Shown piece by piece: positions 9,636-27,391 of a stretch of 32,000 nt of DNA. Source of the stretch: an uncultured Ruminococcus sp. (lineage in GTDB: Bacteria > Bacillota > Clostridia > Oscillospirales > Acutalibacteraceae); assembly GCA_902772955.1 (NCBI GenBank), contig CACYCV010000161.1, positions 9,561 through 41,560 of the forward strand, given 5' to 3'. The translations under genes were made by a program, and so were the position numbers. Every line of letters begins with the position of its first letter. The first letter of the stretch is position 1. A model generated the notes under the pieces. That model saw only the letters and a program-made list of their open reading frames with translations, was not told the DNA's origin and ran no database searches.

Positions 9636-9716
9636 GGGTGTACACGAATTGTGTAAGAACAATGATCAGAATATGATATAATAGAAGTATCATCAGCAAC
9701 AATCGAGGTGAATACC

Positions 9717-10471: not shown

Positions 10472-11476
10472 TCATGCAATGGCATGTCGATAAAATGAAA
10501 GCACCTGGTTCATATAATTTTCATCAAGAATATTTGCCTGATGTTTGTCCGTGGGGTTATCGGTTTTGGCAAGATAACGGGCAGCATCCTCCCGGAGCCA
10601 GAGAGTATTATGCCCGCCCCGATAGGGAGCTTCAATCAGTAGAGTAACCGCATTTGGGTTGGTGATTTCATCCTTTTTGTGCAGGATACTGATATCCTCC
10701 GTGACGATGTCGTCAGTGTTTCCGCCAATGATCAGAACAGGTGTCCTGACGGAATTAACGGCAGCTATGACAGTTTCGTTGGAATCATTTCCGAAGAGGA
10801 AATAATTTTGCAGGCACATAAAGGGGTATTGCAAATCGGCCAGAAAACCCACATAGCGTCTGGCATGATGCAGCATATTTTCGTTGGGTTCATTGAAGCC
10901 GGCAACGCAAACCGCTGCCCGGATGCTGTCATCATCCTGCAGAGCTGTTCCCACCGCATATCCGCCAAGAGAATGGCCGTAGAGCAGAAGCGGAAGCCAA
11001 CAGAGGTCTGATCTGCTCCGGATATACGCTATGGCAGACCTGACATCCAGCCGTGCCTGGGCAATTCCCACGGTTCCGTTTCCCTGACTGTGTCCTACCC
11101 CTGTGTATTCAAAGGTGAATACGGAAAAACCGTTGTCTACAAACCAAAGTATTTCCGGCAAATGGCGGTCAATACAACAGTTCATTCCGTTTGCCAACAG
11201 AATAATTCCGCTTGATTTCTCTTTCGGCTGGTACAAGCATCCAAAAAGCTGTTGATTTCCTGATGGAAACCAAAGCTCTTCACGGGGATACCGATCCTGA
11301 TCAATGTCATCGTAGGTCAGCTCATAAGGGGCAATGGAACCGGAGCGGGAAAAGATGATCTGAAAAATGATAACGGATCCCGCCATGGATACCACCACAT
11401 AAGAAAGAGTGGAAACGATCAGAATAATGCACACCTTCCTGATTCGCCGTCGTTTAGGTGTCACCGGCTTTTTCAT
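10472..11476 (-). CDS. Membrane-anchored alpha/beta hydrolase (paralog 1)
   Basis: An N-terminal TM helix is present (VCIILIVSTLSYVVVSMAGSVIIFQIIF). The nucleophile elbow is GHSLGG. The later Asp and His contexts are GGNTDDIV and YRGGHNTLW. The start was set to ATG 11476 (AAAGGAAGAG RBS); the track start is 11515. Confidence 0.75.
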   Translation of the reverse strand: MKKPVTPKRRRIRKVCIILIVSTLSYVVVSMAGSVIIFQIIFSRSGSIAPYELTYDDIDQDRYPREELWFPSGNQQLFGCLYQPKEKSSGIILLANGMNCCIDRHLPEILWFVDNGFSVFTFEYTGVGHSQGNGTVGIAQARLDVRSAIAYIRSRSDLCWLPLLLYGHSLGGYAVGTALQDDDSIRAAVCVAGFNEPNENMLHHARRYVGFLADLQYPFMCLQNYFLFGNDSNETVIAAVNSVRTPVLIIGGNTDDIVTEDISILHKKDEITNPNAVTLLIEAPYRGGHNTLWLREDAARYLAKTDNPTDKHQANILDENYMNQVLSFYRHAIA

Positions 11477-11521
11477 AAGACTCTTCCTTTCTATTTTGGG
11501 CTGTCTGAACAACATTTATAC

Positions 11522-11551
11522 AAAAAAAGCACCGACATCGATCGGTGCTTT
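11522..11551 (-). terminator. Intrinsic terminator ending the 11-gene lipid operon
   Basis: The minus strand reads AAAGCACCGA-TCGATG-TCGGTGCTTT followed by TTTTTG. It lies directly after the stop of the last gene (11557). Confidence 0.8.
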
Positions 11552-11556
11552 CGTCA

Positions 11557-11973
11557 TTACAGTTTACCAAGCTTGCTCATAGCAACGGAGGTTTTCAGTG
11601 CGTCAGGGTGCTGAATGGCCATGATAATTAGGAAGGTATAAAGGATTGTCATGCCGATACTTGCAAAGATACCGGCAATAGCAAGCTTCTTGCCAATCCG
11701 GACCTGCTTTGAGATATCACCATAGGTCGAAACATAGTTATTGGCCTTAACGATGCCAATAATGGAAAAAATCAGACCGAAAATAGCCAAGCAACAGCCA
11801 ACAGCCACAGATACAATACCAAATACCAATACCTGAACGTGATTTCCCTGTGATTGTGTGCCCATAGAAGAATTGGGCTGAGTTTGATAGGGTGCTGCTC
11901 CGGCAACGGGTGTTCCACACCTCGGGCAAAAAAACTGCCCATCAACGGGTGTTCCGCATTTCTGACAAATCAT
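11557..11973 (-). CDS. Zinc-ribbon membrane protein (two C-terminal TM helices, DUF4190-like)
   Basis: The start is at ATG 11973 (AGGAG RBS). The CxxC...CxxC motif is MICQKCGTPVDGQFFCPRCGTPV. A Gln/Ser-rich linker and two hydrophobic helices follow. Confidence 0.65.
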   Translation of the reverse strand: MICQKCGTPVDGQFFCPRCGTPVAGAAPYQTQPNSSMGTQSQGNHVQVLVFGIVSVAVGCCLAIFGLIFSIIGIVKANNYVSTYGDISKQVRIGKKLAIAGIFASIGMTILYTFLIIMAIQHPDALKTSVAMSKLGKL

Positions 11974-12011
11974 AGAATACTCCTTTCCTGCAGTTTCCTG
12001 CAAACACAAAA

Positions 12012-12986
12012 TCATTCGCCGAGAATACCATCGGTTACTGTCTTATTATGACATAATTCTCCTAAAAAATCAACTATTACCTGATCATATTTTTCCGAAG
12101 CATGTATTTTTATATGAGAATGTGCCCCTTTTTCAAAATACACCAGTCGTTTAGGAGCAGGGCACTGCTCATACAAGACCTTGGCCTTTTCAGGAAGTGA
12201 AAAAATGTCTTCTTTGCTTTGCAGCATCAGAATAGGCTTTCGCAGGTTTCTGATCCGGAAAATCGGTCCGTCTTTTTTGATATCATAGCCTGAAAACAAT
12301 CGTATATAGCCCCGAAGCTCCCATAAGGCCGGATAGACCGGCTGATGAAAGGCCTTGATGCGATAATACAGCATATCATAGAACCGGGTAAACATTCCCT
12401 CGCTTGTCATTCCCTGCACATAATCGGGACAGTCTCCGGAGGTCAGGGCAAACAGCGCATGAGAAGCGCCGATGCAGATTCCGTGAAGAAATACCAGTTG
12501 ATTATTCATCTCATCATGCAGCATGCGGCACCAGCAGAGCACATCCTGGTATTCCCGATAGCCAAGGGAGTTGACTACGCCATCGGATTTTCCATGAGAA
12601 CGGCAGTCTATTACCAGAACATTATAGTCCGCCCTGCGGTAGGCTTCGGCAAAATAATAGGAGTATAACATAGACTCCGTTCTGCCGGAGATAATGATTA
12701 CAGCTTTGTCTGAGTTAAAATCAAAATACTCACCGAACAAATGATACTTGCCGCTGTAGAGATCGACAGGACAACGACGCCTGACGTACTTCTCTGCCCA
12801 TTCCAGGCCTGTATAATACATTTCTGTGATTTCTTTATCCTTTGGGACGCTGCATTTTCTGGCCCATTTTCCCTTTCGGGTACGTACCAGCAATATCAGG
12901 TACAGAACGGCCGGGACAATGATCAAAGGAGCAATAACCAGAAAAAATACAGCAATTCCTATCAGAATTCCAATCCAGATATTCAT
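12012..12986 (-). CDS. Membrane-anchored alpha/beta hydrolase (paralog 2) with Cys at the nucleophile position
   Basis: An N-terminal TM helix is present. The elbow reads HGICIGAS, aligned with GLSMG and GHSLG in the paralogs. The Cys171 codon TGC is at 12474-12476. The Asp and His contexts are SKEDIFS and EKGAHSH. Confidence 0.75.
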   Translation of the reverse strand: MNIWIGILIGIAVFFLVIAPLIIVPAVLYLILLVRTRKGKWARKCSVPKDKEITEMYYTGLEWAEKYVRRRCPVDLYSGKYHLFGEYFDFNSDKAVIIISGRTESMLYSYYFAEAYRRADYNVLVIDCRSHGKSDGVVNSLGYREYQDVLCWCRMLHDEMNNQLVFLHGICIGASHALFALTSGDCPDYVQGMTSEGMFTRFYDMLYYRIKAFHQPVYPALWELRGYIRLFSGYDIKKDGPIFRIRNLRKPILMLQSKEDIFSLPEKAKVLYEQCPAPKRLVYFEKGAHSHIKIHASEKYDQVIVDFLGELCHNKTVTDGILGE

Positions 12987-13018: not shown

Positions 13019-14683
13019 TTATACAAGTCCAAGAATCCAGTGATAGACACTCTGTCCCCCGTTGACAAATTCAACATCCAGAGTGGGATAGGCTTCACCC
13101 AGCGCCCGCAGCAGGATTTCCTCGTGTTCCTCCGGAACACCTTCTCCGCGGAAAACCACGCAGGTTTCCTTATCCTCCATATCCTCCACTTCCTGAAGAC
13201 CCTGCATAATCGGCGTAAGCCATTGATTGCTGACACAAACAAGATGATGATCCAGCAGCAGGATCTCGTCTCCCTTCCGGCAGCTGACAGATCCCTCGGT
13301 ATAATCCCGGAAGGCAGTTGTTTCACAAAGTGTAACGGTGTTTTCCATGCCGCCGGTCATTTCACTGATGCGAAAATCAATGTCGGTACTATTGCTGACA
13401 TCCATTGCCATGGCGAAATAACCTTCTGCGATGCTTTTGGAGGGAAGCACGGTGACTATTTTTTTATCGTACAGTTTGATAGCTTGCTGCGCGGCAAGAA
13501 TCACATTCGGATGGTTGGGAAGAACGACGATAGCATCTGCGTCCAGGCCGGCAAAGGCATCCAGAAACTCCTGGGATGAGGTATTCATGGTGGAACCGCC
13601 GTCAATGACAACGTCACATCCCAGATCGGAAAATATCCGTTTCATTCCTTCTCCGTTGGCAACCGCAACGGTAGCCAGCAGCTTGTGAATTTTCCTGGGC
13701 TTCTGAGAGGAAAGCAGCTTTTCATGTTCGTTGTGCTGAACCTGCATATTTTCCAGCTTAAAGGTCAGAAACTCGCCGTAACGCTGGCTAAGCAGAATTA
13801 CCTTCGCTGGGGACAGGGTATGAATATGTACCTTGATCCGTTTTTCGTCCTGAACCACGACCAAAGAATTGCCGCATTCCTTCAAGGCTTCTATATATTC
13901 CTCCAGCACGAAATCCTGCCGGTAGCAGGGTGCCTTCAGCAGCTGCAGAATATACTCCATACAGTAGCCGTCCTGAAAGCTGCTGTTTTCATCAAACAGA
14001 TCAAATCCGGCTCCGGTGGAAGCAGTGCTTTCTTCAGGAGCAGTGTCACTGATGATCTCTCCCCTGAGATAAGAGAGAATTCCCTCGGTAATCGTAATAA
14101 ATCCAAGGGCACCGCTGTCAACCACGCCGGCCTCTTTGAGTACAGGAAGCAGTTCCGGCGTTTTATCAAGGAGATTATTCATCGTGGAAAGATAGCGGGA
14201 AAGAAAATCCTCTAAACTCAATTCAGGTGTAACGGAATCCCTGATGGTTTCGATCCCCTCCCGGGTGACGGTGAGAATGGTTCCTTCTGTGGGGTTGACA
14301 ACCGCCTTATAGGCGACCTGATAGCCCTTGACCAGACCTTGACTGTATTCTACCGTTCCGATGGACTGACAATCCCGAAGCACAAGACTAAAGCCCTTGA
14401 AAAACTGAGACAGGATCACGCCGGAATTCCCTCTGGCACCCAGCAGCATCCCTTTGCTGAAGCGTTCCATATAAGCGCCGAGATGATTATCTGAGCCGGC
14501 ATATCGGATGCCGCTTTCCAATGTCAGACGCATATTGGTTCCGGTATCTCCGTCTGAAACAGGAAAAACATTCAGGCGGTTTATTTCCCGTTCCAATTGT
14601 CGGAGTCTTGCCAGTCCGTTTTTCAGCATTTTTTCAAACTGTAAGCCGTCAATTCTTTTTTCGCTCGTCACGGTGGTGATCAC
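13019..14683 (-). CDS. fakA: Dak2-domain fatty-acid kinase subunit (FakA / YloV family)
   Basis: 554 aa. The DhaL/Dak2 motif is FPVSDGDTGTNM. Size and domain order match YloV/FakA. The GTG start overlaps the stop of the upstream DegV gene (GTGA). Confidence 0.75.
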   Translation of the reverse strand: MITTVTSEKRIDGLQFEKMLKNGLARLRQLEREINRLNVFPVSDGDTGTNMRLTLESGIRYAGSDNHLGAYMERFSKGMLLGARGNSGVILSQFFKGFSLVLRDCQSIGTVEYSQGLVKGYQVAYKAVVNPTEGTILTVTREGIETIRDSVTPELSLEDFLSRYLSTMNNLLDKTPELLPVLKEAGVVDSGALGFITITEGILSYLRGEIISDTAPEESTASTGAGFDLFDENSSFQDGYCMEYILQLLKAPCYRQDFVLEEYIEALKECGNSLVVVQDEKRIKVHIHTLSPAKVILLSQRYGEFLTFKLENMQVQHNEHEKLLSSQKPRKIHKLLATVAVANGEGMKRIFSDLGCDVVIDGGSTMNTSSQEFLDAFAGLDADAIVVLPNHPNVILAAQQAIKLYDKKIVTVLPSKSIAEGYFAMAMDVSNSTDIDFRISEMTGGMENTVTLCETTAFRDYTEGSVSCRKGDEILLLDHHLVCVSNQWLTPIMQGLQEVEDMEDKETCVVFRGEGVPEEHEEILLRALGEAYPTLDVEFVNGGQSVYHWILGLV

Positions 14684-15615
14684 TCCGATGCATTCAGTAA
14701 TTTCGTGAAAAGTTCCTTCTCTTCCTGCAGATCCTTCGAAATGGATTTTCCCATATAATAGGCCGCCATCAGACCAGGTCCGATATTAATGCCGGAACCA
14801 GGAAAGACATCTACAATTCGGATTTCCTTGGGATGAATGGTTTCTTCGATCATTTTTTTATACTGCTCAGCCTGCGGGAGCCGGTTGGACTGGGCGATAA
14901 AAATCATCTGAGTTTCCGGATGCTCAATGGTAGCGGCGATATACTTCAAAAGAACGCTGTAGGCTTTTTTAGCTCCCTTTGCCTTGCCTAGGACAGTTGT
15001 CATTCCGTTATAGTCGAATTCTCCGATGGGCTTGACGCCGATCAGTGTTCCCATCAGGGCCGCGGCATGATTGATTCTACCCTTTTTGGCAACAAAGGAA
15101 AGATCGTCCAACCAGCCCGCCTGATGATAACGACATTTGTTTTCTTCAATCCAGGCGGCAGTCTCTTCCAGCGTTTTTCCTTGGCTGCGAAGCAAAGATG
15201 CACGGACAGCAATCAGTCCAAAGCCTGGTCCGAAGCGCAGGGAGTCAATGAGACGGATATCCGCATGGGGGTATTCTTCCTTGACCTGCTCGATACCCTT
15301 TGCGGCAAAACTGTAGCTTCCGCTCATGGTTGAGGACATGGTGATAACAAGAATGCCATAGCCCTGCTTGAGATATTCTCTGAAGGCTTCTGCAAACAAT
15401 TCAGGGTTTGGCGGTGAAGTGGAATAGCCGTTGGGATTCTTTTTCAGCTTATTGTAAAAATCTTCCCGGTCATAGGTTTTCCAGCTCAGAAACTGCCTGA
15501 TATCCGTATTATCCGGCAGATGAATGTGGCCGACAACCGTCTTGATGTCGAATTCCTGCTGCATCTCTTCGCTGAGATCAGAGGTGCCGTCTGCAATGAT
15601 GATGAATTTCTTCAT
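14680..15615 (-). CDS. fakB: DegV-family fatty-acid-binding protein (FakB-type)
   Basis: 311 aa. The N-terminus is typical of DegV (MKKFIIIADGTSDLSEE). The gene is translationally coupled to the Dak2/FakA gene. Confidence 0.7.
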   Translation of the reverse strand: MKKFIIIADGTSDLSEEMQQEFDIKTVVGHIHLPDNTDIRQFLSWKTYDREDFYNKLKKNPNGYSTSPPNPELFAEAFREYLKQGYGILVITMSSTMSGSYSFAAKGIEQVKEEYPHADIRLIDSLRFGPGFGLIAVRASLLRSQGKTLEETAAWIEENKCRYHQAGWLDDLSFVAKKGRINHAAALMGTLIGVKPIGEFDYNGMTTVLGKAKGAKKAYSVLLKYIAATIEHPETQMIFIAQSNRLPQAEQYKKMIEETIHPKEIRIVDVFPGSGINIGPGLMAAYYMGKSISKDLQEEKELFTKLLNASE

Positions 15616-15621
15616 GGTTTT

Positions 15622-16572
15622 TCACTCCTTTGAAAAATCAGGGAAGTAATGTCTGACAAATGACAAGAGAACCTGTTCTGCCCGCTGTCGATCCTCCAGG
15701 AAACTGAGAGTATGGTGTCCGTTTTCCATCAGGAGAAATTCTTTTGGAGAGGCACAGGCATCATAGATAACCTGTCCCCAGTGTGGATCAACGGTCAGAT
15801 CGTTGGTTCCCTGTACCACCAATACCGGGCACTTTGCATGAGAAAGTGCTGCTGTAGTGGGGGTTTTGATATCAACATGAAAGAAGATTCCGGCCATCAG
15901 ACGTTCTGTCAGAAGGAGAATCTTCGGTATGTGACGCTTAATGGCGTCGCTTCGCATCTGTTCATGGACAGAATAGTAGCAGCTGTCCAGCACAATGCCA
16001 CGTACAATGTCCGGATCCAACGTATCAGAGGCATAGGCAATGGCCGAGGCACCCATGGACAAGCCGTAAAGCAGTATCTGCGTTGCCCCCTGCTTCTGTG
16101 ACCATTGGATCCAGGAAAACACATCTTTTTTTTCACGCAGTCCGATGGTGGTCCAGTGTCCCTCACTCTGACCGTGAGAACGGTGGCAGATTAACAAAAC
16201 ATTAAAGCCGTTCCTACGGAAGAAATCAGCCTGTCCGGAACAGTTGGTGTACATTTCTGCCCCAAGGCCATGAAAGATAATTGCCGTACGGGGATAACCG
16301 CCGTCATAGTATTCGCCGTAAAGCTTTAATCCATCATAGGAAACAGTGCTGACCGGATGATGCTCTTGTGAAAGGATACTGCTGCGGGCTGAGGCGATTC
16401 TGTCCAGATATGGAATATAATAGTGATTGCGAAAACGCTTCCGATTATACTGCTCAAAAGGTACCGATTTTTTTCTTCTGAAAACCAAAACAAAAACCAC
16501 CAGGGTGGGAGCGATGATAAACACCAGCAAGCAGGCGGCGGCAATCAGAAGAATGATTCCCCAGACAGACAT
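15622..16572 (-). CDS. Membrane-anchored alpha/beta hydrolase (paralog 3)
   Basis: An N-terminal TM helix is present (VWGIILLIAAACLLVFIIAPTLVVFVLVF). The elbow is GLSMGAS. The Asp and His contexts are QGTNDLTV and ENGHHTL. A GGAGGGTG RBS lies upstream. Confidence 0.75.
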   Translation of the reverse strand: MSVWGIILLIAAACLLVFIIAPTLVVFVLVFRRKKSVPFEQYNRKRFRNHYYIPYLDRIASARSSILSQEHHPVSTVSYDGLKLYGEYYDGGYPRTAIIFHGLGAEMYTNCSGQADFFRRNGFNVLLICHRSHGQSEGHWTTIGLREKKDVFSWIQWSQKQGATQILLYGLSMGASAIAYASDTLDPDIVRGIVLDSCYYSVHEQMRSDAIKRHIPKILLLTERLMAGIFFHVDIKTPTTAALSHAKCPVLVVQGTNDLTVDPHWGQVIYDACASPKEFLLMENGHHTLSFLEDRQRAEQVLLSFVRHYFPDFSKE

Positions 16573-16584
16573 ATCTTCACCCTC

Positions 16585-17430
16585 CTACATAAAACGCTTT
16601 TTGCCAAGCAATGCAGCAAAGTCATTTTCCACCCAGAAGTATCTGGCTGCTGCTGCATTTTTTCCGCTGATGGAAACGGGGATTTCCGGCTCTCTCAGTG
16701 TCTTGACCACATCGCCGTCCGGAGTATCTGTTCTGAGAATGACAGCCTCATTGGATACGGCAACAGCGGCAACGGATCCGGTACTGCTCATGGAAAAATG
16801 GAAGCTGCTGCAGACCCATTTTCCGCTGAGCTTTCGTTTCAGTCCGGCTTTTGACAAATCCGTGTGAAAGGAACGTTCCGCTGCAATCGACATAAGCCTC
16901 CAGCAGGTGATTACCCTGCGCCGTTCTTCCTCCTGACGGAAGGCCTGAATCTCCCGCAGGAGCTTTTCCGGAAGTGTATCCGGTATCGCATGTGCATCAG
17001 TGACAGCCGACAGATAGACATCGCAGATCCGTTGATTCGCCCATCGTTTTCGGACCTCCTCTTCCTGACTGCAGCGAGAGATGCCGAAGATACATTCATT
17101 GACAAAATGCTCACAGTTATGATGGATCAGATCATAACCTCCCTCTCCCAGACGGGAGCGGGCTTTCCGGATCGTTTCCTCAGGAGGAAAGCGCTTCTTC
17201 AGCTCGCCTCGTTCGAGGCAGGCAGTTTCTATGATACAGCCGCAGGAAAAAACGTCAATATTGGTGGCAAGAACAACGACTTCTCCTTCGGCTGCCCGGT
17301 TTTCCGCAGTAGGAGGCAGTCCGAACTGGATGATCTCATTTTCACTGACAAAAATCCCGTAATGATAGAGCGCTCCCAGGCGAACCCGGATCATATCACC
17401 GGGATGACATTCTTTTGGCTCCCATTTCAT
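16585..17430 (-). CDS. LRAT/PLAAT-like (NlpC/P60 superfamily) Cys-His acyltransferase/phospholipase domain fused to a degenerate Sfp-type PPTase-like region
   Basis: The N-terminal His box is LYHYGIFV and the catalytic-Cys motif is HHNCEHFVNE. The C-terminal ~150 aa follows the Sfp pattern (GKW...FHFSMSSTG; FWVENDFAALLGKK versus W-x-KE-x-x-K). It lacks the G-I/V-D-x-E metal motif. Confidence 0.6.
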   Translation of the reverse strand: MKWEPKECHPGDMIRVRLGALYHYGIFVSENEIIQFGLPPTAENRAAEGEVVVLATNIDVFSCGCIIETACLERGELKKRFPPEETIRKARSRLGEGGYDLIHHNCEHFVNECIFGISRCSQEEEVRKRWANQRICDVYLSAVTDAHAIPDTLPEKLLREIQAFRQEEERRRVITCWRLMSIAAERSFHTDLSKAGLKRKLSGKWVCSSFHFSMSSTGSVAAVAVSNEAVILRTDTPDGDVVKTLREPEIPVSISGKNAAAARYFWVENDFAALLGKKRFM

Positions 17431-17684
17431 GACAATGCGCCCTCGATATAGCTGATAACATCTCCGACGGTCTGGAATTCGTTCATGGAAACGCCGGAGA
17501 AGCGGATCTGAAATTCCTCTTCTGTGGCAATAATCAGATAAAGCATATTGACTGAGGTCAGTCCCAGGTCATATTGCAGGTTGGTTTGTTCATCAATCGT
17601 TTCGATGATGTCACCGCTGCGCTCATCCATAGAATAGAGAATTCCTTTTAAGCGTTCCAGTATTTCTTTTTTACTCATTGACAT
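17427..17684 (-). CDS. Stand-alone acyl carrier protein
   Basis: 85 aa. The phosphopantetheine-site context is DLGLTSVNMLYLIIATEEEF (compare DLGLDSLD...EEEF). It overlaps both neighbours (ATGA with the LRAT gene). The alternative start at ATG 17678 forms ATGAGTAA with the stop of the upstream adenylase gene (17671-19182). Confidence 0.8.
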   Translation of the reverse strand: MSMSKKEILERLKGILYSMDERSGDIIETIDEQTNLQYDLGLTSVNMLYLIIATEEEFQIRFSGVSMNEFQTVGDVISYIEGALS

Positions 17685-19182
17685 TTTTGTATCTCACAAT
17701 CTTTAGACTTGGTGTTCTTTCAAAATCCTTCTCACGGATTACCATCCTGCTGACCTGTTGAAAGGACGGAAGACCGGCATTGATTTTCTGGCATTCCTGG
17801 AGAACATAGGCATTAACATCCACGGTTCCCAGTTTGGCAGCCTCTGATGCCCGCAGAACAATTTCCAGGGCAAGAAAGCGATTGCCCTTTTCATCCTGAT
17901 CCTCAAAGACCTGGGTATCCTGGATAATGGGCAGGGCGTTGAATTTGGCTTCCAGCTCTGCCGGAGAAATATTTTCGCCGCTGGGGAGAACAATTACTTC
18001 CTTGATTCTGCCGGTGATATAGAGAAAACCCTCTTCGTCCATACGCACCAGATCGCCGGTTTTGAACCAGCCGTCTTCATAGGCATCCGTTTCATCTGTG
18101 CCTACATAACCATCCATCATGTTCTTACCTTTCAGCCACAGTTCTCCGTCTACAATGCGGTATTCCATTTCCGGATAGATCAGTCCGACAGAATCCGGTT
18201 TATTCAGGAATTCCGGATTGCCGGAAACCAGGTTAGCCGATTCCGTCAGGCCATAACCAGGATACAGGTCGATACCATATTGCTGATATTCTTTTGTCAA
18301 ATAAGGCGGTACACTGGCTGCTCCGCAAATAATGGTATGCAAGCTGTTGCCTAACATCATTTTGCCAAACTTTTTGGAAAGTGCCAGTGTCATTTCTGCC
18401 AGTGCAGGCACCATGATCATGATAGTCGGCTGAAAGACGGCGGCATCACGGAACATATCCTTGTTATCGCGGCAAATCTTTAACGTGCTCCCGGTGTAAA
18501 GTGACGCCATCAGATTGCGGATCAGACCAAACACATGAAACAGGGGCAGAACCAGAAGATATCGCTGACCAAAGGATTTCGGAAGGCCGAGACAGCTATT
18601 GATCGAACCCTGCATAACTGCCGTATGGGAAAGAAGGGCACCTTTGGGACGTCCTGTTGTCCCGCCTGTCATCATGATGACGCACTCGTCCTTTCCCTCA
18701 CACGGTACCGACGGGGTTGCTTCCGATGCGGTTGTTTCCGGGAGAATAACCGGAAAAGCGGGATTCATCTTTTGCAGCAGATTTCCTTTTTCGGCATGAT
18801 CTGTAATCAGCATGGAAAATCTCAGCATCTGACTCAGCCCGAATAATTCTTTCTCCTGCAAATGAGGCGGCAGAATCACGGCAGTACATCCCAGTGTTAC
18901 CGTGGCAAGAAACGCTTTGACCAGATCATAGCAATTGGGCATGCACAAGGCAATGCGTGTTTTTTCCACTCCCTGTTCTTTCAGAACGGTTCTGAAGCAG
19001 GCAACGTCCTGTGACAGGGTTTGATAAGAATATTGCTTGTCCAGATCTTCGATGGCAATTCTGTCACTGTACTCTTTGGACCTTGCCTCCCACATATCCG
19101 TCAAAGACGGATAATGAATGATTTTTTGAAAGGTTTCCTCGCCGGTAAAACGACGGTAAAGTTCCAAGGTATCTGCTATCAT
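17671..19182 (-). CDS. Adenylate-forming enzyme, long-chain fatty-acid ligase-like (ANL superfamily)
   Basis: 503 aa. Canonical motifs are present: TGGTTGRPKG, GYGLTE, FKTGD and GRIKEVIVLPSGENISPAELE. An AGGAGG RBS lies upstream. Confidence 0.85.
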   Translation of the reverse strand: MIADTLELYRRFTGEETFQKIIHYPSLTDMWEARSKEYSDRIAIEDLDKQYSYQTLSQDVACFRTVLKEQGVEKTRIALCMPNCYDLVKAFLATVTLGCTAVILPPHLQEKELFGLSQMLRFSMLITDHAEKGNLLQKMNPAFPVILPETTASEATPSVPCEGKDECVIMMTGGTTGRPKGALLSHTAVMQGSINSCLGLPKSFGQRYLLVLPLFHVFGLIRNLMASLYTGSTLKICRDNKDMFRDAAVFQPTIMIMVPALAEMTLALSKKFGKMMLGNSLHTIICGAASVPPYLTKEYQQYGIDLYPGYGLTESANLVSGNPEFLNKPDSVGLIYPEMEYRIVDGELWLKGKNMMDGYVGTDETDAYEDGWFKTGDLVRMDEEGFLYITGRIKEVIVLPSGENISPAELEAKFNALPIIQDTQVFEDQDEKGNRFLALEIVLRASEAAKLGTVDVNAYVLQECQKINAGLPSFQQVSRMVIREKDFERTPSLKIVRYKNVNE

Positions 19183-19199
19183 TTGAATAGTCCTCCTGT

Positions 19200-19844
19200 T
19201 TAAAGTTTTTTGGCATATTCTTCAAGTATGGTTTCCTTTTCCTGAAGCTCCTTCGTAATGGCTTGTATTTTGGCAAATGACGGTCTTCCCCCACTGGCGG
19301 CGACAATATCCACCGGTTCTCCGATTACCGCTTTCAAACGGGAATACCAATGCTTCCGGGGCTTGATATACATCGGCACAATTGGACACCTGCTCTGGAT
19401 AGACATCAGAATCATACCGGATTTGAACTGACTCATTTCGTCCCGGTAGATATGTCCCTCCGGAAAAATCGTTACCATTTTTCCCTCTTTCAGGGTGTCA
19501 GTAATAGTGCGGAAGGAGTCGATGCTGACATTATCGGCATGAATGGGGATCATACAGCCGGCTGCACGAAAAAGAGGGGCTGCCCGGGATTCCATCAGCG
19601 TATGATGGCAGACAAAATATTGCCGACGGTACCAGACGGAATACATGGTGTGCAGGGGATCAAAAAAGCTGGTATGATTGGCTATCAGAAGAGTACCGCC
19701 CCGGATTTTTTTGCGGGCTTCCCTGGAAATAAAGCGTATTTTAGGTCGGAGCCAGATAAAACCAGGGAACCATCCGGTAATGCGGACAAAATCCATCAGA
19801 AAGCATCTGAGAGAAAATAATTTAGCCTTTTGAGGTTTGTTCAT
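19200..19844 (-). CDS. PlsC/LPLAT-family acyltransferase (copy 2)
   Basis: 214 aa. The HX4D motif is NHTSFFD. FPEGHI and PIVPMY are also present. It overlaps the upstream paralog by 23 nt. Confidence 0.8.
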   Translation of the reverse strand: MNKPQKAKLFSLRCFLMDFVRITGWFPGFIWLRPKIRFISREARKKIRGGTLLIANHTSFFDPLHTMYSVWYRRQYFVCHHTLMESRAAPLFRAAGCMIPIHADNVSIDSFRTITDTLKEGKMVTIFPEGHIYRDEMSQFKSGMILMSIQSRCPIVPMYIKPRKHWYSRLKAVIGEPVDIVAASGGRPSFAKIQAITKELQEKETILEEYAKKL

Positions 19845-20463
19845 GTAACTGACGCTCCAATCGGATGATTTTTTCCCGCAGGGCAGCAGAGATTTTTTCG
19901 AGATTTTCTTTTTCTGTCAGGGAATCGTCTACATAGTCTCTTGCATACACTGGCGTACCAATGATAACCCTTGCTCGTTTTTTACAGAAATAGGCGCCGT
20001 TGGTATAAACCGGAATGATCGGTATATTGTTCATCAGACTCAGATAGGCCGTTCCCGGTTTGAACGGAAGGGGCCTTTCTTCTCCATTTTTGGGAAGACG
20101 TCCCTCCGGAAAAATCTGAACGACGCCGTGCTTTTCAAGTACGGACTGTGATTTTCCCATAAATCCGAACTGCATACTGTCCCGGTCCACCCGGATTCCT
20201 CCCATCATTCTGAGAAAAAGACCTAACAGCTTTTTTCGGAAAAGCACCTCTGCCATTTGTGTTCTCAGAGTCCGGAAGAAAAAAACAAATAAAAAAACAG
20301 CATAATCCCACACAGATGTGTGGTTTGATATCAGAATGGCCGGCCCATTGATGTGACGACTCTGAATTTTTTTGTCTTCATAATAGACCTTTGTACGAAA
20401 AACCGCCTTCTGAACAGGGTAACCGGTTATCTTGACAAAGGCATTCCAAAGCTGAATCAACAT
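19822..20463 (-). CDS. PlsC/LPLAT-family acyltransferase (copy 1)
   Basis: 213 aa. The HX4D motif is NHTSVWD. FPEGRL and PIIPVY are also present. The start overlaps the upstream stop (ATGTTGA). Confidence 0.8.
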   Translation of the reverse strand: MLIQLWNAFVKITGYPVQKAVFRTKVYYEDKKIQSRHINGPAILISNHTSVWDYAVFLFVFFFRTLRTQMAEVLFRKKLLGLFLRMMGGIRVDRDSMQFGFMGKSQSVLEKHGVVQIFPEGRLPKNGEERPLPFKPGTAYLSLMNNIPIIPVYTNGAYFCKKRARVIIGTPVYARDYVDDSLTEKENLEKISAALREKIIRLERQLHEQTSKG

Positions 20464-22394
20464 GATTTTGAATTTTCCTTCATGTATTGATAGAATTCCT
20501 CGGCGGTGCGCAGCGTCTGATCATCCTGCCGGAGAAAGGAAACGCCATAGTCCTCCTGAAGTCTGGCGGTAAGTGCCATATAATCCAGACTGGTGCCTCC
20601 CAGATCCAGAAAAAAGTCCGTTTCCGGTGATATTTCACTGAGATCCTTTTCCAGCACTGCCGCCATCATTTGCCGGAGGGTTCGCATCAGCTCGTCCTCT
20701 TCCTCCCTGTCGGCAGCGGAATCGGGCGTTACCTGACGCAGCTTGCCCGCCGCATAATCCTCACGCAGGCGCTTGCGGTTGAGCTTAAATTCATCTCCCA
20801 GCATCAGCTTATCTGAGATATAAACAATCCTGCCCAACTGACCTGTCAGATGAAGCTCTGTCAGCTTATCCTTTAATCGGCTATCCAGCTGTTCCAGCTG
20901 GCTTCCCTCGCAATAACGATTGACCGATACCAACAGCACAGGGGTATCCTTGCTGGGGATGATGCAGACGCCGTTTGTTCCTTCGATACTAAGCTGAGGC
21001 TCGTACAAATTGGGATTGAGATTTTCTCCGTTGGAGGAGACAATCAGATCATCTGTCCGGCCAAGAATACGGTATTCCCCCCTGACGCATTCTGCGAGAT
21101 CATGGGTATTAAACCATTTTTCAGGATCGGTCATGGTTTTTTGGCCGTTTTCAATGATATAGCGGGCGACAACCTTTCCCCTCACCAACAATTCACCGTC
21201 ATCATTGATAGAATATTCGGCATAGGTCATTGGTTTCCCGACAAAGCAGGCATTCAGAATTTTGGGCCGGTTGGAAAGCTCCACGGAGGTAATGCCGATT
21301 TCTGTCATGCCGTAGCCGTCAGCCAACCGGTAGCCGATAGCATTAAAAAACTCCATGACTTCCGGACGAATGGCGCTGCCGCCGGTAATCAGGATACAGA
21401 TACTTTCACCGAAAAGATTCTCTCTGACCTCCTTGAAGGCAGTCCGTGAAAACAGGTGACTCAATGCGGTCATGCCGGATAGCTTCCGCGAGAGTTTCAT
21501 TCCCTTTTGAAATTTCCGATAAGTTTTTTGTCCCCTTCCCCTGATGGTTTTGATTGCCTGGTCATAAACCGTTTCCCAGAACAGAGGGACAGCAAAGATA
21601 TGCGTTACTTTATGTCGTTTAATCGTATTGACAATGGTCTGTGGGGTCATATCATTGAGATGCACAAAGGTTCTTGAGAAAAATGCAAACCAGATGTACA
21701 TGGCAATCAGACCGAATACATGATAGAATGGCAAAAAAGTCAGCAACTTCAGATATCCGTCATAATGACGCTTGAACAAAGAGCATTTTTGGATAAGGTG
21801 ATAGCTGTCATGAATCTGACACCGGAACTCCTTGGCGGAATAGGCACAGATTTTGATATGATCGGAGGTACCGGAGGACATCACCAGGATTTCTTCTCCG
21901 AATTTCCGGGGCTTCCATGGGGGTTCTGTTTTGACAAGCTCCTTAGTGTCAATAGTAGGAAAAGAATAGCTCCTTTGATCGGACAAAACGGCACAAGCAT
22001 GACTATCCTTCAGAGCTTGCTCCAATACGTCATCACTCAGACGAAGGTTCATCAGCAGCGGACACCAGCCGCAAAGGAGAATAGCCCAAAATAACTCAAT
22101 CCACAAAAGGGAATTCTCCATACTCAGACCGACGACCGCATTATCCGGCAGGTCAAGCCGCTGTTTCAGTGTGGCTGCCAGTAAATAGATTTCCTCCTTG
22201 GCTTCTCCATAGGTGGTAATCTGCATCCGGTAGCCTTCGCTTTTTTCATACATCCGGTTTTCTGATTCACTGAACATTAATTCAAACAGAGATGAAAAAT
22301 CCGGTTCTGACTGATCCAACAGTTGTAGCTTAGCTTCCACAAAGCGATTAATGGTTTTATGAGTTCCTAAGCCGAGATTTTTCTGTTTTTTCAC
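20457..22394 (-). CDS. Divergent adenylate-forming enzyme fused to a C-terminal PCP-type carrier domain (A-T didomain)
   Basis: 645 aa with a GTG start and an AGAGGAAGGAAG RBS. ANL motifs GYGMTE, NTHD and GRTDDLIVSSNGENLNP are present. The P-loop-like motif is degenerate (SSGTSDHIK). The C-terminal carrier motif is DFFLDLGGTSLDYMAL. Confidence 0.8.
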   Translation of the reverse strand: MKKQKNLGLGTHKTINRFVEAKLQLLDQSEPDFSSLFELMFSESENRMYEKSEGYRMQITTYGEAKEEIYLLAATLKQRLDLPDNAVVGLSMENSLLWIELFWAILLCGWCPLLMNLRLSDDVLEQALKDSHACAVLSDQRSYSFPTIDTKELVKTEPPWKPRKFGEEILVMSSGTSDHIKICAYSAKEFRCQIHDSYHLIQKCSLFKRHYDGYLKLLTFLPFYHVFGLIAMYIWFAFFSRTFVHLNDMTPQTIVNTIKRHKVTHIFAVPLFWETVYDQAIKTIRGRGQKTYRKFQKGMKLSRKLSGMTALSHLFSRTAFKEVRENLFGESICILITGGSAIRPEVMEFFNAIGYRLADGYGMTEIGITSVELSNRPKILNACFVGKPMTYAEYSINDDGELLVRGKVVARYIIENGQKTMTDPEKWFNTHDLAECVRGEYRILGRTDDLIVSSNGENLNPNLYEPQLSIEGTNGVCIIPSKDTPVLLVSVNRYCEGSQLEQLDSRLKDKLTELHLTGQLGRIVYISDKLMLGDEFKLNRKRLREDYAAGKLRQVTPDSAADREEEDELMRTLRQMMAAVLEKDLSEISPETDFFLDLGGTSLDYMALTARLQEDYGVSFLRQDDQTLRTAEEFYQYMKENSKSC

Positions 22395-22429: not shown

Positions 22430-22458
22430 ATTATACTACAAATAGCGACACGTTTCAA
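22430..22458 (-). promoter_or_regulatory. Sigma-A promoter of the lipid operon
   Basis: The minus strand has TTGAAA (22458-22453), a 17-nt spacer and TATAAT (22435-22430), about 35 nt upstream of the GTG start. Confidence 0.65.
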
Positions 22459-22502: not shown

Positions 22503-22531
22503 TTGACAAGCATAATCTGTCATGCTATAAT
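22503..22531 (+). promoter_or_regulatory. Sigma-A promoter of the trp operon
   Basis: TTGACA (22503-22508), a 17-nt spacer, then TATAAT (22526-22531), with TG at 22523-22524 (extended -10). Confidence 0.75.
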
Positions 22532-22537
22532 CATTGA

Positions 22538-22828
22538 AAATCGGATATATAAACCGATGATGCGGAGATAACGGCATGGATGCCTTTACAGAGAGCCTGT
22601 GGTGCTGAGAGTCAGGTAAGAAACACTATGTCAAATGGACCGCTGAGGGCGCAGCCAAAGGGGATTCTTCCCTCAGTATGCTGTGACGTTGCAGGCAGAC
22701 GTTACCTGCCGGGGATATGTTGGTATCTCGCAGAGGGCACGGGTTTTCCGTGAATGTAAGGTGGCACCGCGAATTTGTTGATTCGTCCTTAGCAGAATTC
22801 TGGATTCTGTTAAGGATTTTTTATTTTT
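22538..22828 (+). promoter_or_regulatory. T-box riboswitch leader, Trp-specific
   Basis: Stem I elements are present (AGAGAG...GGTGC...AGAG). The candidate specifier is UGG followed by A (22636-22639). The T-box sequence is AAGGTGGCACCGCG (22758-22771). The terminator is TCCTTAGCAGAAT/ATTCTGTTAAGGA (22786-22816) followed by TTTTTTATTTTT. It lies directly upstream of the trpE RBS. Confidence 0.85.
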
Positions 22829-22842: not shown

Positions 22843-24312
22843 ATGAAGATTTCCCCGTCGTTAGAAACTGTAAAGACAATTGCAGCATCCGGGCAGTATG
22901 ATGTCCTTCCCCTGAGCTGTGAGATCCTGTCGGATTTTACAACTCCTATTGAAACGATACGGATACTAAAAAAGGCATCCACCCATTGCTATCTGCTGGA
23001 ATCTGCGCAGGCCAATGAACGATGGGGACGCTATACCTTCCTGGGTTACGATCCGAAAATGGAAATTACCTGTATCAACGGCCGGATGAAAATGGGAGAC
23101 AAGGAGCTGCAGGTTGAAAATCCCACGGAGCATCTGAGAAGAATTCTGTCGGATTACAAAAGTCCCCGACTGGAATCCCTTCCTCCTTTTACCGGAGGCC
23201 TGGTAGGCTATTTTGCCTATGATTATCTTGGCTACAGTGAACCCTGTGTCCGCTGTCAGGTGGAGGACAGCGAGCGCTTCAAGGATGTAGACCTGATGCT
23301 GTTTGATAAAGTCATTGCCTTTGACCATGTCAGACAGAAGATAGTCCTGATGGTCAATATGAAGCTGAAAGGCGATGCGGAGGAGCATTACCGCAAGGCT
23401 TCTGAAGAGCTTCATCAACTGATCAGACTGTTGAAAACCGGAGAGAAAAAAGAGGAAAAACCGGGGCGTCTTGTGGGTGAGGTAACACCCCTGTTCCGGA
23501 AGGAAGAGTATTGTGCCATGGTCGCAAAAGCCAAGGAGCATATCCGAGAGGGAGATATTTTTCAGATTGTGCTGTCCAACCGGTTATCGGCACCTTTTGA
23601 GGGCAGTCTGCTGCACACCTATCGGGTTCTGCGCACCATCAACCCTTCGCCGTATATGTTCTATTTCTCGGGAACGGACGTGGAAGTAGCCGGAGCCTCT
23701 CCCGAAACCCTTGTTAAGCTGGAAAATGGAATTCTTCACACCTTCCCGCTGGCAGGTACCCGTCCCCGTGGAAAAACCGAGCAGGAGGATCTGGAGCTGG
23801 AGCGGGAATTACTGCAGGATGAAAAAGAGCTGGCAGAGCACAACATGCTGGTTGATCTGGGGCGAAATGACCTTGGAAAAATCAGTCGGTTCGGAACCGT
23901 TGTGCCGGAGAAGCTCCGTTCGGTGGAACGGTATTCTCATGTAATGCATATCGGTTCGACTGTACGGGGGGAAATCCGGGAGGACAAGGACGCGCTGGAT
24001 GCGATTGAAGCAGTGCTCCCTGCAGGAACGCTTTCCGGTGCGCCAAAGCTGAGAGCCTGTCAGCTGATAGGGGAACTGGAAAACAACAAGCGCGGGATTT
24101 ACGGCGGTGCCATTGGCTATATTGACTTTACGGGCAATATGGATACCTGCATCGCTATCCGCATCGCTTATAAGAAAAACGGTAAGGTGTTTGTCCGAAG
24201 CGGAGCCGGCATAGTAGCGGATTCCGATCCGGAAAAGGAGTTTGAGGAATGTCTGAATAAGGCACGTTCCTCCCTGAAAGCCCTGGAAATAGCACAGGAG
24301 GCAGATGTATGA
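22843..24312 (+). CDS. trpE: Anthranilate synthase component I
   Basis: 489 aa. Chorismate-binding family motifs are present (GTLSGAPKLRA, GIYGGAIGY). An AGGAGG RBS lies upstream. Confidence 0.92.
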   Translation: MKISPSLETVKTIAASGQYDVLPLSCEILSDFTTPIETIRILKKASTHCYLLESAQANERWGRYTFLGYDPKMEITCINGRMKMGDKELQVENPTEHLRRILSDYKSPRLESLPPFTGGLVGYFAYDYLGYSEPCVRCQVEDSERFKDVDLMLFDKVIAFDHVRQKIVLMVNMKLKGDAEEHYRKASEELHQLIRLLKTGEKKEEKPGRLVGEVTPLFRKEEYCAMVAKAKEHIREGDIFQIVLSNRLSAPFEGSLLHTYRVLRTINPSPYMFYFSGTDVEVAGASPETLVKLENGILHTFPLAGTRPRGKTEQEDLELERELLQDEKELAEHNMLVDLGRNDLGKISRFGTVVPEKLRSVERYSHVMHIGSTVRGEIREDKDALDAIEAVLPAGTLSGAPKLRACQLIGELENNKRGIYGGAIGYIDFTGNMDTCIAIRIAYKKNGKVFVRSGAGIVADSDPEKEFEECLNKARSSLKALEIAQEADV

Positions 24313-24878
24313 TTCTGTTAATTGATAATTATGATAGCTTTTCCTATAATCTGTATCAGTACGTCGGAGAGATCAATCCGGATATCAGAGTGATTCGCAA
24401 TGATGAAATGACCGTTTCGGAAATCCGCTCACTGCATCCCGAGAGAATCATTCTTTCTCCGGGACCGGGACGGCCGGAGGATGCGGGAATCATCATTGAT
24501 GCCGTAAAGGAATTGGCCAATGAAATTCCGATGCTGGGTGTGTGTCTGGGACATCAGGCTATCTGCGCTGCCTTCGGAATGAAGATTACCTATGCCGGAC
24601 AGCTGATGCACGGAAAGCAAAGTCTTGTTTCCTTTGACACGACCTGTCCTCTCTTTATGGACTGTCCGGAAAAAGCACCTGTTGCCCGTTACCACTCGCT
24701 GGCAGCGGATGCCTCTACCCTGCCGGATTGTCTGAAAATCACAGCAGTAACCGATGACGGTGAGATTATGGCGATACAGCATAAAACCTTTCCTGTTTTC
24801 GGTATTCAGTTTCACCCGGAATCCATTCTGACTCCCAACGGAAAAGAAATGCTGCTGCGCTTTATTAACGAAGGTTAA
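24309..24878 (+). CDS. trpG: Anthranilate synthase component II (glutamine amidotransferase)
   Basis: 189 aa. The class I GATase motifs GVCLGHQ and FHPES are present. The start forms an ATGA overlap with trpE. Confidence 0.9.
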   Translation: MILLIDNYDSFSYNLYQYVGEINPDIRVIRNDEMTVSEIRSLHPERIILSPGPGRPEDAGIIIDAVKELANEIPMLGVCLGHQAICAAFGMKITYAGQLMHGKQSLVSFDTTCPLFMDCPEKAPVARYHSLAADASTLPDCLKITAVTDDGEIMAIQHKTFPVFGIQFHPESILTPNGKEMLLRFINEG

Positions 24879-24965
24879 TCATTCAAATGCTGTTTCCGGG
24901 TATCAGTCAGATGAAAGATGACCGGAACGGAGTCAATACTCAATCACAGAAAGGAATGTTCAGAA

Positions 24966-25997: not shown

Positions 25998-26776
25998 CCA
26001 TTCTGGATCAGTTGGCTGCTCATGCAAAAGAACGATGTTCTGCCGCCAAAGCAAAGCTGTCTGAGGATGAAATCAGAAGCACGGCGCTTGCTTTGCCAAA
26101 GGGTGACTTTTCCTTTGAAAAAGCACTGCAGAAGCCTGACCTGTCATTTATCTGTGAGTGCAAAAAAGCCTCTCCCTCCAAGGGACTGATTGATGCAGAT
26201 TTCCACTATCTTCAGATTGCCAGAGAATATGAAGCGGCAGGAGCAGATTGCATTTCGGTACTGACAGAGCCGAAATGGTTTCTGGGGAAAAATGATTACC
26301 TGAAAGAAATTGCAGCAGAGGTTTTTGTTCCCTGCCTGCGGAAAGATTTTACGGTCGATGCCTATATGATCTATGAAGCAAAGCTGCTTGGGGCATCCGC
26401 TGTTCTGCTGATTGTTTCCATTCTGAGTGAAGAGCAGCTCCGGGAATACATAGAGCTTTGCGATGCACTTGGTTTGTCTGCGTTAGTGGAAACACATGAC
26501 GCGGAAGAAATCACGGCGGCACTTCGTGCGGGGGCAAGAATGATTGGCGTCAATAACAGGAACCTCAAAAACTTCTCTGTTAATCCGGAAAACAGCCGCC
26601 ATTTGAGAGAGTTGGTGCCGGAAAATGTTCTTTTTGTATCGGAAAGCGGTATCAGGACTCCGGAGGATATCCGGCTGCTGCGGGAAATCGGTGCTGACGC
26701 TGTTTTGATCGGAGAAACACTCATGAAGGCTGACGATAAAAAGAAGATGCTCCGTCAGCTGAGGGAGGTTGTATGA
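25994..26776 (+). CDS. trpC: Indole-3-glycerol-phosphate synthase
   Basis: 260 aa. Motifs [12 protein letters not shown] and GVNNRNL are present. The start forms an ATGA overlap with trpD. Confidence 0.9.
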
Positions 26777-27387: not shown

Positions 27388-27391
27388 GAAT

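Follow-up and report, generated by a model that had tools for sequence, protein, structure and literature searches.

Two adenylase-carrier-acyltransferase sets at the head of a conserved lipid operon in Ruminococcus-like Clostridia, with a probable role in fatty-acid and lysolipid salvage

A window of 32,000 nucleotides (nt) from an uncultured Ruminococcus sp. (assembly GCA_902772955.1, contig CACYCV010000161.1, positions 9,561 to 41,560; the window is this whole stretch, and coordinates given without a locus name refer to it) carries a minus-strand operon that opens with five genes: an adenylase fused to a carrier (A-T), two acyltransferases of the LPLAT/PlsC family (Pls1 and Pls2), a second adenylase (A2) and a free-standing acyl carrier protein (ACP). 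The operon is read here, at a probability of roughly 0.55, as an accessory system for the salvage and re-acylation of exogenous fatty acids and lysolipids, headed by two non-redundant modules that would each activate, carry and esterify an acyl group. Judged from the sequences, scavenged fatty acids are probably activated on two private carriers and then built into membrane lipids. The observations behind this reading are the gene content, the domain identities, the integrity of the motifs, the conservation of gene order, a split into an Aas-like and a PlsC-like set, and a pattern of co-evolution. The family of each part and the chemistry of Aas and PlsC are known; what appears to be new is the combination of two such modules with FakAB, a fusion of PLAAT-like and phosphopantetheinyl transferase (PPTase) domains, and hydrolases with Cys or Ser nucleophiles.

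Composition and divergence of the two sets

The five genes at the head of the operon are as follows.

20457..22394, minus strand: A-T, 645-amino-acid (aa) adenylase fused to a carrier; T domain at about residues 565-645 (nt 20460-20702)
19822..20463, minus strand: Pls1, 213-aa PlsC-like LPLAT acyltransferase
19200..19844, minus strand: Pls2, 214-aa Aas-like LPLAT acyltransferase
17671..19182, minus strand: A2, 503-aa fatty-acid-type adenylase, presumed acyl-ACP synthetase
17427..17684, minus strand: ACP, 85-aa free-standing acyl carrier protein

In the open reading frame (ORF) listing all five are co-directional and are transcribed in the order A-T, Pls1, Pls2, A2, ACP. The genes, order, coordinates and domains proposed by a first-pass annotation of the letters agree with this listing and with Pfam, where every domain scored above its curated cut-off, and the motifs it had quoted (both carrier sites, HX4D and FPEG) were all found in the sequence. 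The two acyltransferases, which it had described as back to back, are indeed adjacent, but they are co-directional with an overlap of 23 nt and not divergent. The stop of A-T overlaps Pls1 by 7 nt, Pls2 and A2 are spaced by 17 nt, and the stop of A2 overlaps the start of ACP by 14 nt.

A-T matches AMP-binding (PF00501, 3e-33, 115.6 bits) and PP-binding (PF00550, 3e-11, 43.7 bits against a cut-off of 20.8). Its carrier motif, DFFLDLGGTSLDYMAL, is present with the Ser in LGGTSL, and this Ser is kept in 79 of 80 sequences. GYGM[TS]E, the A7 Asp, GRxDD and the A10 Lys are likewise kept in 79-80 of the 80, and the A3 motif, or P-loop, is a family-specific variant, SSGT[ST]xHVK, in which the Gly and Pro are lost and the Lys is kept; this variant aside, A-T carries the core motifs of the ANL superfamily in a sequence test. 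It also matches the NCBIfam model for carboxylic acid reductase (CAR). Structural models made with AlphaFold2 (AF2) were of medium confidence overall; for A-T (pLDDT 75), the top Foldseek matches are adenylase-peptidyl carrier protein (A-PCP) didomains (McyG, CAR and EntE-EntB), followed by MenE, FadD13 and AasS at about 15% identity, and entries 5msw and 4r0m were matched at E-values of about 1e-20. On the model, A-T is thus a divergent CAR-like A-PCP didomain. It shares the fold of the didomains of CAR and of those that load non-ribosomal peptide synthetases (NRPS), at about 15% identity, but has no reductase, condensation or thioesterase domain, and a PlsC-family acyltransferase presumably acts after it. 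A-T has an acyl-type A4 motif (LPFYHVFGL) and scores 43 bits against the amino-acid adenylation model TIGR01733, the cut-off of which is 317; because of these two results, the substrate of A-T is most likely an acyl group and probably a fatty-acyl one.

A2 matches AMP-binding (PF00501, 4e-57, 194 bits against a cut-off of 29.9) and AMP-binding_C_3, its closest PDB entries are FadD13 and feruloyl-CoA synthetase (1e-33), and it matches NCBIfam PRK06814 at 3e-36. Its motifs are fully canonical for the ANL adenylate-forming superfamily: across 61 sequences, TGGTTG..K, GYGLTE, TGDL, GRxKE and the A10 Lys show little or no variation. Since the two adenylases share the A4 motif LP[FL][YF]HVFGL and NCBIfam matches to FadD, MenE and CAR, and since the score against TIGR01733 lies far under its cut-off, both look like acyl-activating enzymes and not amino-acid-activating ones.

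The free ACP matches PP-binding (PF00550, 5e-7, 30.4 bits against a cut-off of 20.8) and contains the motif DLGLTSVNMLYLIIATEEEF, the Ser of DLGxxSV being invariant in 68 of 68 sequences. It falls short of the models for housekeeping AcpP (best NCBIfam match 43 bits against 70; TIGR00517 35.9 against 70.45), and by these scores it is not the housekeeping AcpP. No similarity between the T domain and the free ACP was detectable by BLASTP. The proposed distinction between a PCP-type and an ACP-type carrier therefore stands in so far as GG[TS]S in the T domain is replaced by G[LF][STN]S in the ACP and the two share no BLASTP similarity, but it is a soft one, in that both carriers are acidic (pI about 4.2) and both have DLGxxS.

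The carrier site of A-T bears on a different explanation, in which the locus is a specialised-metabolite ("NRPS-like") cluster: A-T would activate a non-fatty (hydroxy, aryl or amino) acid, and the two PlsC-like enzymes would attach this acid, and also a fatty acid, to a small acceptor by ester bonds, yielding a secreted or signalling lipid. This is considered unlikely. It draws on the PCP-like GG[TS]S site, on the distance of A-T from known fatty-acid ligases, on its unusual P-loop, and on the databases, where homologues of A-T are named only "AMP-binding protein" or "non-ribosomal peptide synthetase"; the acyl-type A4 motif and the 43 bits against the cut-off of 317 for TIGR01733 argue the other way.

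Pls1 matches PF01553 (4e-19, 69 bits), with PlsC of T. maritima (5kym) as its PDB match, and carries NHTSVWD and FPEGR in the window. All 74 sequences share HX4D, PE[GS]R and the Arg of block II (GGxxV[DN]R), and IPV of block IV is conserved, so that all four blocks of the LPLAT/PlsC family are present. Its score against TIGR00530 is 54.7, below the trusted cut-off of 103, and on its sequence Pls1 is a divergent LPLAT/PlsC member. Motif analysis of the GPAT/PlsC family places block II of LPLAT enzymes in contact with the phosphate of the acceptor. Pls2 matches PF01553 at 4e-16 and carries NHTSFFD and FPEGH; HX4D has its His and Asp in all 72 sequences, block III reads FPEG, and blocks I, III and IV are those of the family. 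Its best NCBIfam match is PRK08633, the LplT-Aas fusion type (70 bits), which both Pls proteins match, Pls2 more strongly, and it also matches PRK08043, the E. coli Aas. Block II of Pls2 takes the form C-I-P-I-D-x-x-N, resembling FVPLD of Aas, with an Arg in only 37 of the 72 sequences. In the window it reads IPIHADN: the Arg is replaced by Ala throughout the clade, and the Asp, kept in 69 of 72 relatives, is replaced by His in the window only.

Family profiles were built from the related loci and scored against the proteins of E. coli K-12. The Pls1 profile scores 41.6 bits on PlsC and 19.1 bits on Aas, the latter in a partial alignment only; the Pls2 profile scores 41.7 bits on PlsC and 37.7 bits on Aas across all blocks. 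The A2 profile scores 107 bits on the adenylation domain of Aas and the A-T profile 12 bits on Aas, with no match to PlsC in either case. By these scores, Pls2 and A2 together resemble a split Aas, and Pls1 resembles a canonical PlsC.

The two adenylases are 24% identical and the two acyltransferases 26%. These pairwise values bear out an ancient divergence of the paralogues, and a recent tandem duplication of one set was rejected on the same values and on the lack of detectable similarity between the carriers. Inactivating substitutions had been named as grounds for abandoning the two-set proposal; conservation of catalytic residues was judged across 60-80 species, and none was found in the catalytic motifs. 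An inactivated set was accordingly rejected as well, the sole deviations being in block II of Pls2 and in the PPTase remnant described below. The sequences support two distinct sets that diverged anciently and are both under selection. The earlier suggestion was of two acyl groups, or of two positions on one acceptor; the sets differ in kind, and a split between an Aas-like and a PlsC-like set would fit two positions or two acceptors. For N-acylation, also suggested, no support was found.

Conservation of gene order and pairing within the sets

One genome per species was scanned, and at least 464 genomes encode a relative of A-T. Eighty loci were kept for comparison, onto which the operon proteins were mapped by tblastn and phmmer; most are metagenome-assembled genomes (MAGs) of Ruminococcus, Oscillospiraceae, Acutalibacteraceae and some Lachnospiraceae from rumen and gut, and the cultured carriers Ruminococcus sp. 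JL13D9 and JE7B6 are among them; Ruminococcaceae bacterium P7 is another cultured carrier. Gene content was counted in the 55 species-level loci that reach at least 11 kb beyond A-T in the downstream direction. The order A-T-Pls1-Pls2 is found in all 55, and the related loci are 49-72% identical to the window; A2 is present in 50 and ACP in 54, and at 30-50% sequence divergence 50 of the 55 loci still have all five genes together in order. Among the genes further downstream, described below, LRAT is present in 52, ABH1 in 54, DegV in 55, FakA in 55 and ABH2 in 54. Gene order is stable while the flanking genes vary, which indicates that the operon is a conserved unit and that the mirrored order of the two sets did not arise by chance. 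The TetR, beta-lactamase-like, GT2, glgB and trp genes of the window were rejected as members of the system, as they are not syntenic in relatives.

Co-evolution was assessed from pairwise distance matrices over 38 shared taxa, regressed on the operon background (FakA, DegV, ABH1 and ABH2). The residual correlation is 0.55 between the adenylation part of A-T and Pls1, 0.44 between A2 and Pls2, and 0.33 between A2 and ACP, against 0.26 and 0.12 for the cross pairs of the A-T adenylation part with Pls2 and of A2 with Pls1, respectively. The T domain alone gives 0.30 with Pls1 and 0.30 with Pls2. Bootstrap differences exclude zero in three of the four contrasts.

Gene fusions bear on the same question. 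One Oscillospiraceae MAG, a single assembly, encodes Pls1 and Pls2 as one in-frame fusion of 431 aa that contains two PF01553 domains (locus L026, 11937-13232), which argues that both act in one pathway. In Fusobacterium animalis pSB029A (NZ_CP077186.1; locus L084, 7584-10058), an 824-aa protein annotated only as "AMP-binding protein" joins an adenylase, an ACP and a PlsC-like domain, and carries DLGMDSLD and PF01553. The A-T profile covers its A and T parts with 150 bits at about 26% identity. By its domain content, this protein shows the same logic within one chain, from adenylase to its own carrier to a PlsC-like enzyme. It would perform the same three functions in fused form, much like an Aas with a carrier of its own, but is single-copy and stands alone, with no Fak, LRAT or hydrolase context. 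Matches similar to it are also found in F. vincentii and Ilyobacter polytropus. A homology search with Pls2 returned orthologues only and no informative fusions, and an 809-aa homologue (P0035) was rejected as an A-T-PlsC fusion, its ORF call being merely over-extended at the N-terminus.

Several observations count against dedicated pairs of donor carrier and transferase. The bootstrap interval of the Pls2 contrast (A2 versus A-T) includes zero; A-T and Pls1, like Pls2 and A2, are neighbours, so the co-evolution signal could reflect adjacency and is not cleanly separable from linkage; and five of the 55 loci (L046, L062, L072, L073 and L056) lack A2 yet keep Pls2, four of them with ACP and one with neither A2 nor ACP. 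At L046 there is no room for A2, Pls2 ending at 13170 and ACP starting at 13181. Since these loci keep Pls2, it is not strictly dependent on A2 or ACP.

The strongest form of this objection is that the sets are not dedicated at all: the adenylases would differ only in chain preference, any carrier or housekeeping acyl-ACP would serve either acyltransferase, and the mirrored order would have no function. The retention of both Pls genes where A2, or in one case A2 and ACP, is dispensable fits this, as do the Pls1-Pls2 fusion, which suggests that the two act as a unit, the similar acidity of the carriers and the equal residuals of the T domain. We nevertheless regard it as quite improbable, given the retention of five ordered genes in 50 of 55 loci at such divergence, the pair-specific residuals of the A domains, the systematic difference between Pls1 and Pls2 in the acceptor-binding block II and in affinity to Aas or PlsC, and the lack of detectable similarity between the carriers. 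The best reading of the sequence data is a pairing of A-T with Pls1 and of A2 with Pls2 that is not obligatory; the dedicated pairs proposed in the first-pass annotation thus hold as a tendency, seen in the residuals and in the Fusobacterium protein, but not as a rule, as the five loci lacking A2 attest.

Lipid-handling genes of the operon and its probable role

The five genes had been taken for a free-standing biosynthetic pair of sets; the genes are real, but they form the head of a lipid operon of 11-12 genes, and the proposal is recast here as fatty-acid and lysolipid salvage. The further features of the operon, in the direction of transcription, are as follows.

22430..22458, minus strand: sigma-70-like promoter, TTGAAA-17-TATAAT, with 11 of 12 consensus matches, upstream of A-T
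16585..17430, minus strand: LRAT-PPTase remnant gene, 281 aa, with a PLAAT/LRAT-like N-half and a degenerate Sfp-type PPTase C-half
15622..16572, minus strand: ABH1, membrane-anchored alpha/beta hydrolase with a GxSMG serine
14680..15615, minus strand: DegV/FakB-like fatty-acid-binding protein (PF02645)
13019..14683, minus strand: FakA-like kinase subunit with Dak2, FakA_M and FakA_C domains
12012..12986, minus strand: ABH2, membrane-anchored alpha/beta-fold enzyme with a Cys nucleophile (HGICIG)
11557..12015, minus strand: small membrane protein with an N-terminal zinc ribbon, its presence varying among relatives
11525..11552, minus strand: intrinsic-terminator-like hairpin, 12-bp stem and T run, closing the 11-gene unit
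10472..11515, minus strand: ABH3, alpha/beta hydrolase with a basic N-terminus and one transmembrane (TM) segment, 3' of the terminator

Downstream of ACP the same strand continues unbroken, its genes overlapping by 4-14 nt or standing 6-32 nt apart. The genes from A-T to the zinc-ribbon protein are one transcription unit, because they overlap or lie at most 32 nt apart, with the promoter at 22458-22430 and the terminator at 11552-11525. The feature thus extends beyond the five genes, down to about 11525 or 10472; ABH3 lies beyond the terminator, yet many relatives have it in synteny. Between DegV and FakA, 24 of 55 loci have a gene for an MFS_2 (PF13347) transporter, which the window operon lacks. 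Examples of this gene are L046 15353-16696 and L056 5502-6929, and all five loci lacking A2 have it.

The N-half of the sixth gene matches PF04970 (1e-16) and PLAAT3 (PDB 4dot, 4e-7). It shares the fold and the NCEHF Cys with mammalian PLAAT/HRASLS/LRAT proteins, but is bacterial, is fused to a PPTase half and has its second His replaced by Gln. Relatives of about 345 aa join LRAT to a complete Sfp-type PPTase, with PF04970 and PF01648 and the motifs GVDIE and WTxKE intact (L053 14950-15984, L037 14954-15991), and other relatives have the LRAT domain alone (132-144 aa, for example L020 14952-15386). In the clade of the window, a deletion of about 60 aa in the PPTase half removes the GxDxE..WxxKE core; the window protein has VILRTD, no WxxKE segment and no match to PF01648, and so lacks the catalytic features of the Sfp type. 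Its AF2 model still shows the PPTase fold (pLDDT 80-95; 2cg5, 4mrt) with conserved residues kept, which suggests a non-catalytic role such as carrier docking. The Sfp-type PPTase encoded in the operons of relatives implies private carriers. No other PPTase is visible within the 32-kb window, and the organism must rely on genes outside it for an active PPTase and for a transporter.

ABH1 and ABH2 both match Hydrolase_4. The nearest PDB entries to ABH1 are esterases, lipases and monoacylglycerol lipase, and its GxSMG Ser is invariant in 60 of 60 sequences. For ABH2, all 51 sequences keep the Cys of GxCxG, and at least 95% keep D260 and H289; on these residues it looks more like a transacylase that forms a thioester than like a simple hydrolase. 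In both proteins, basic residues (RRKK in ABH1) follow an N-terminal TM segment, and their catalytic domains are for this reason predicted to be cytoplasmic. ABH3 has the opposite predicted topology, and its catalytic domain should lie outside the cell.

The DegV/FakB protein matches PF02645 (3e-54) and TIGR00762 (194 bits, above the cut-off), and the FakA-like protein matches PF02734, PF21645 and PF13684 above their cut-offs and TIGR03599 with 478 bits against 396. Both are members of their families and score below the staphylococcal equivalog models. At L079 (about position 210, minus strand), another FakA-like match (36% identical) is found close to the operon. The sequence comparison hints that the FakA of the operon is an accessory paralogue and not the housekeeping copy.

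The lipid-handling neighbours (FakA, FakB, the PLAAT-like LRAT protein, the esterase- and lipase-like hydrolases and, in relatives, MFS_2) favour a role in lipid salvage. Under such a role, free fatty acids would be released outside the cell or at the membrane by the hydrolases, or would already be abundant in the rumen, and FakB and FakA would capture them as acyl-phosphate for sn-1 acylation by PlsY, encoded elsewhere. A-T would adenylate a fatty or other carboxylic acid and thioesterify it onto its own fused carrier, from which Pls1 would move the acyl group onto a lysophosphatidate-like acceptor. A2 would act as an acyl-ACP synthetase that loads the private 85-aa ACP, and the Aas-type Pls2 would re-acylate a lysolipid from this acyl-ACP. 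Lysolipids and free fatty acids may be generated or interconverted by the LRAT-like Cys enzyme and the alpha/beta hydrolases, and in relatives lysolipids may be imported by the MFS_2 transporter, which, together with an active Sfp-type PPTase, belongs to the unit in many of them.

The same neighbours bear on the "NRPS-like" explanation. Three features would suit it: an Sfp-type PPTase in the operons of relatives, the Cys nucleophile of ABH2, the GxCxG arrangement of which is that of acyltransferases of the polyhydroxyalkanoate-synthase type, and the MFS transporter of relatives, which could be an exporter. Yet no condensation, thioesterase or reductase domain is found in the operon, FakA/FakB, the PLAAT-like enzyme and the lipase-like hydrolases handle fatty acids and glycerolipids, and the phosphate-binding Arg of PlsC is kept in Pls1. 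The known fatty-acid-amide clusters of gut Clostridia need a stand-alone condensation (C) domain (PMC13310621), which is absent here. A true NRPS or fatty-acid-amide cluster of this kind was rejected, as C domains are lacking from the operon proteins and the A domain falls short of the amino-acid model.

A further alternative would have private carriers serve the acylation of a macromolecule, such as a lipoteichoic-acid or glycolipid anchor, a polysaccharide or a protein. Dedicated ACPs for protein acylation do exist, the precedent being a secretion-system protein (PMC5279801), the locus encodes a zinc-ribbon membrane protein and a hydrolase with a predicted outward orientation, and the Arg by which block II of Pls2 would bind the acceptor phosphate is variable. 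On the other side, the genes conserved in the operon include none for a glycosyltransferase, for teichoic acid or for a substrate protein, the GT2 gene next door has no syntenic counterpart in relatives, and Pls1 looks like a standard lysophosphatidate acyltransferase, and this alternative is judged very unlikely.

The salvage reading itself has points against it beyond those raised for the pairing. We infer the fatty-acid substrates, the loading of each carrier, the acceptors and the physiological role from the features above. A-T is atypical, with a P-loop of SSGTSDHIK in place of TSGTTGxPK and about 15% identity to any solved ANL enzyme, and may act on a substrate that is not a fatty acid. 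The altered block II of Pls2 in the window could mean a different acceptor or weakened activity in this lineage, and the PPTase half, by its motifs, is dead in the window. Fak with PlsX is moreover held to be the general Gram-positive route (PMC10146087), next to which two extra ATP-dependent routes seem redundant.

A more ambitious version of the salvage reading, which we put forward at low odds, would make the operon a self-sufficient line of membrane-lipid assembly and remodelling that needs neither type II fatty-acid synthesis (FASII) nor AcpP, in which exogenous fatty acids and the acyl chains of glycerolipids pass to two private carriers and are placed position-specifically. The adenylases would account for part of the loading and thioester-forming Cys transacylases (the LRAT-PPTase fusion and the GxCxG enzyme) for the rest, the retained PPTase fold of the fusion would dock the carriers, and the chains, among them those taken directly from dietary or host glycerolipids, would be placed by the PlsC-type and Aas-type acyltransferases. 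If this is true, Clostridia would have a further way to acquire lipids besides fatty acid kinase.

Relation to known systems and genomic surroundings

The closest chemistry is that of the LplT-Aas system of E. coli, described as a Gram-negative system, in which lysophospholipids are re-acylated with free fatty acids by way of a PlsC-family acyltransferase, an ANL adenylase and ACP (PMC11416262). The Pls2 and A2 profiles match the two domains of Aas, and the NCBIfam models of Aas match Pls1, Pls2 and A2. The operon differs in that acyltransferase and adenylase are separate genes and not the Aas fusion, in that a private ACP takes the place of AcpP, and in that a second, unrelated module of A-T and a PlsC-like enzyme is present. 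LplT of the MFS_1 type is lacking here; the window operon has no transporter, and its relatives have MFS_2 in 24 of 55 loci. The hosts, furthermore, are Clostridia.

Chlamydia uses its housekeeping ACP. In Chlamydia trachomatis, CT775 (an LPLAT) and CT776 (the acyl-ACP synthetase AasC) form a split Aas that assimilates host fatty acids (PMC5693948). The acyl-ACP synthetase and LPLAT are likewise separate genes, but there is a single module, and the unit has no FakAB, LRAT, PPTase or hydrolases. FakA/FakB with PlsX, PlsY and PlsC make up the general Gram-positive route for exogenous fatty acids (PMC10146087). The operon shares with this Firmicutes pathway DegV/FakB and FakA and the same role in activating exogenous fatty acids, but here Fak is joined to two modules of adenylase, carrier and LPLAT, whereas elsewhere Fak, PlsX, PlsY and PlsC suffice. 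A specialised ACP with its own acyl-ACP synthetase is known from sphingolipid synthesis (PMC9386255), and auxiliary ACPs handle exogenous fatty acids (PMC6509188). A literature search found nothing specific on the dual-module operon, the LRAT-PPTase fusion or the Fusobacterium tri-domain protein; it turned up the Chlamydia and specialised-ACP precedents, and a further paper (PMC6378601) was not relevant.

The operon suggests ATP-driven uptake, detoxification or re-use of dietary fatty acids and lysolipids by major Ruminococcus-like degraders of fibre and starch, and so bears on rumen lipid metabolism, on sensitivity to unsaturated fatty acids and on the extent to which FASII inhibitors are bypassed. 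It also offers a clean system for asking how carriers match PlsC-family acyltransferases. "NRPS-like" calls on these genes in cluster surveys of rumen and gut probably denote lipid metabolism and not peptide natural products.

The flanks of the window are ordinary chromosome, with a divergent trp operon and its T-box leader on one side and glgB and queuosine genes on the other. The T-box leader (RF00230, 95 bits) occupies 22548-22793 on the plus strand, with a terminator-like hairpin at 22785-22817, and trpEGDCFBA follows at 22843-29363; the trp promoter, at 22503-22531, stands back to back with that of the lipid operon. At the other end, genes for a TetR regulator, a beta-lactamase-fold (esterase-like) protein and a GT2 glycosyltransferase (7902-10397, plus strand) converge on the end of the lipid operon. 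Further out, at 785-2383 on the plus strand, a 532-aa ORF joins a trypsin-like protease domain to a C-terminal FHA domain, a somewhat unusual pair.

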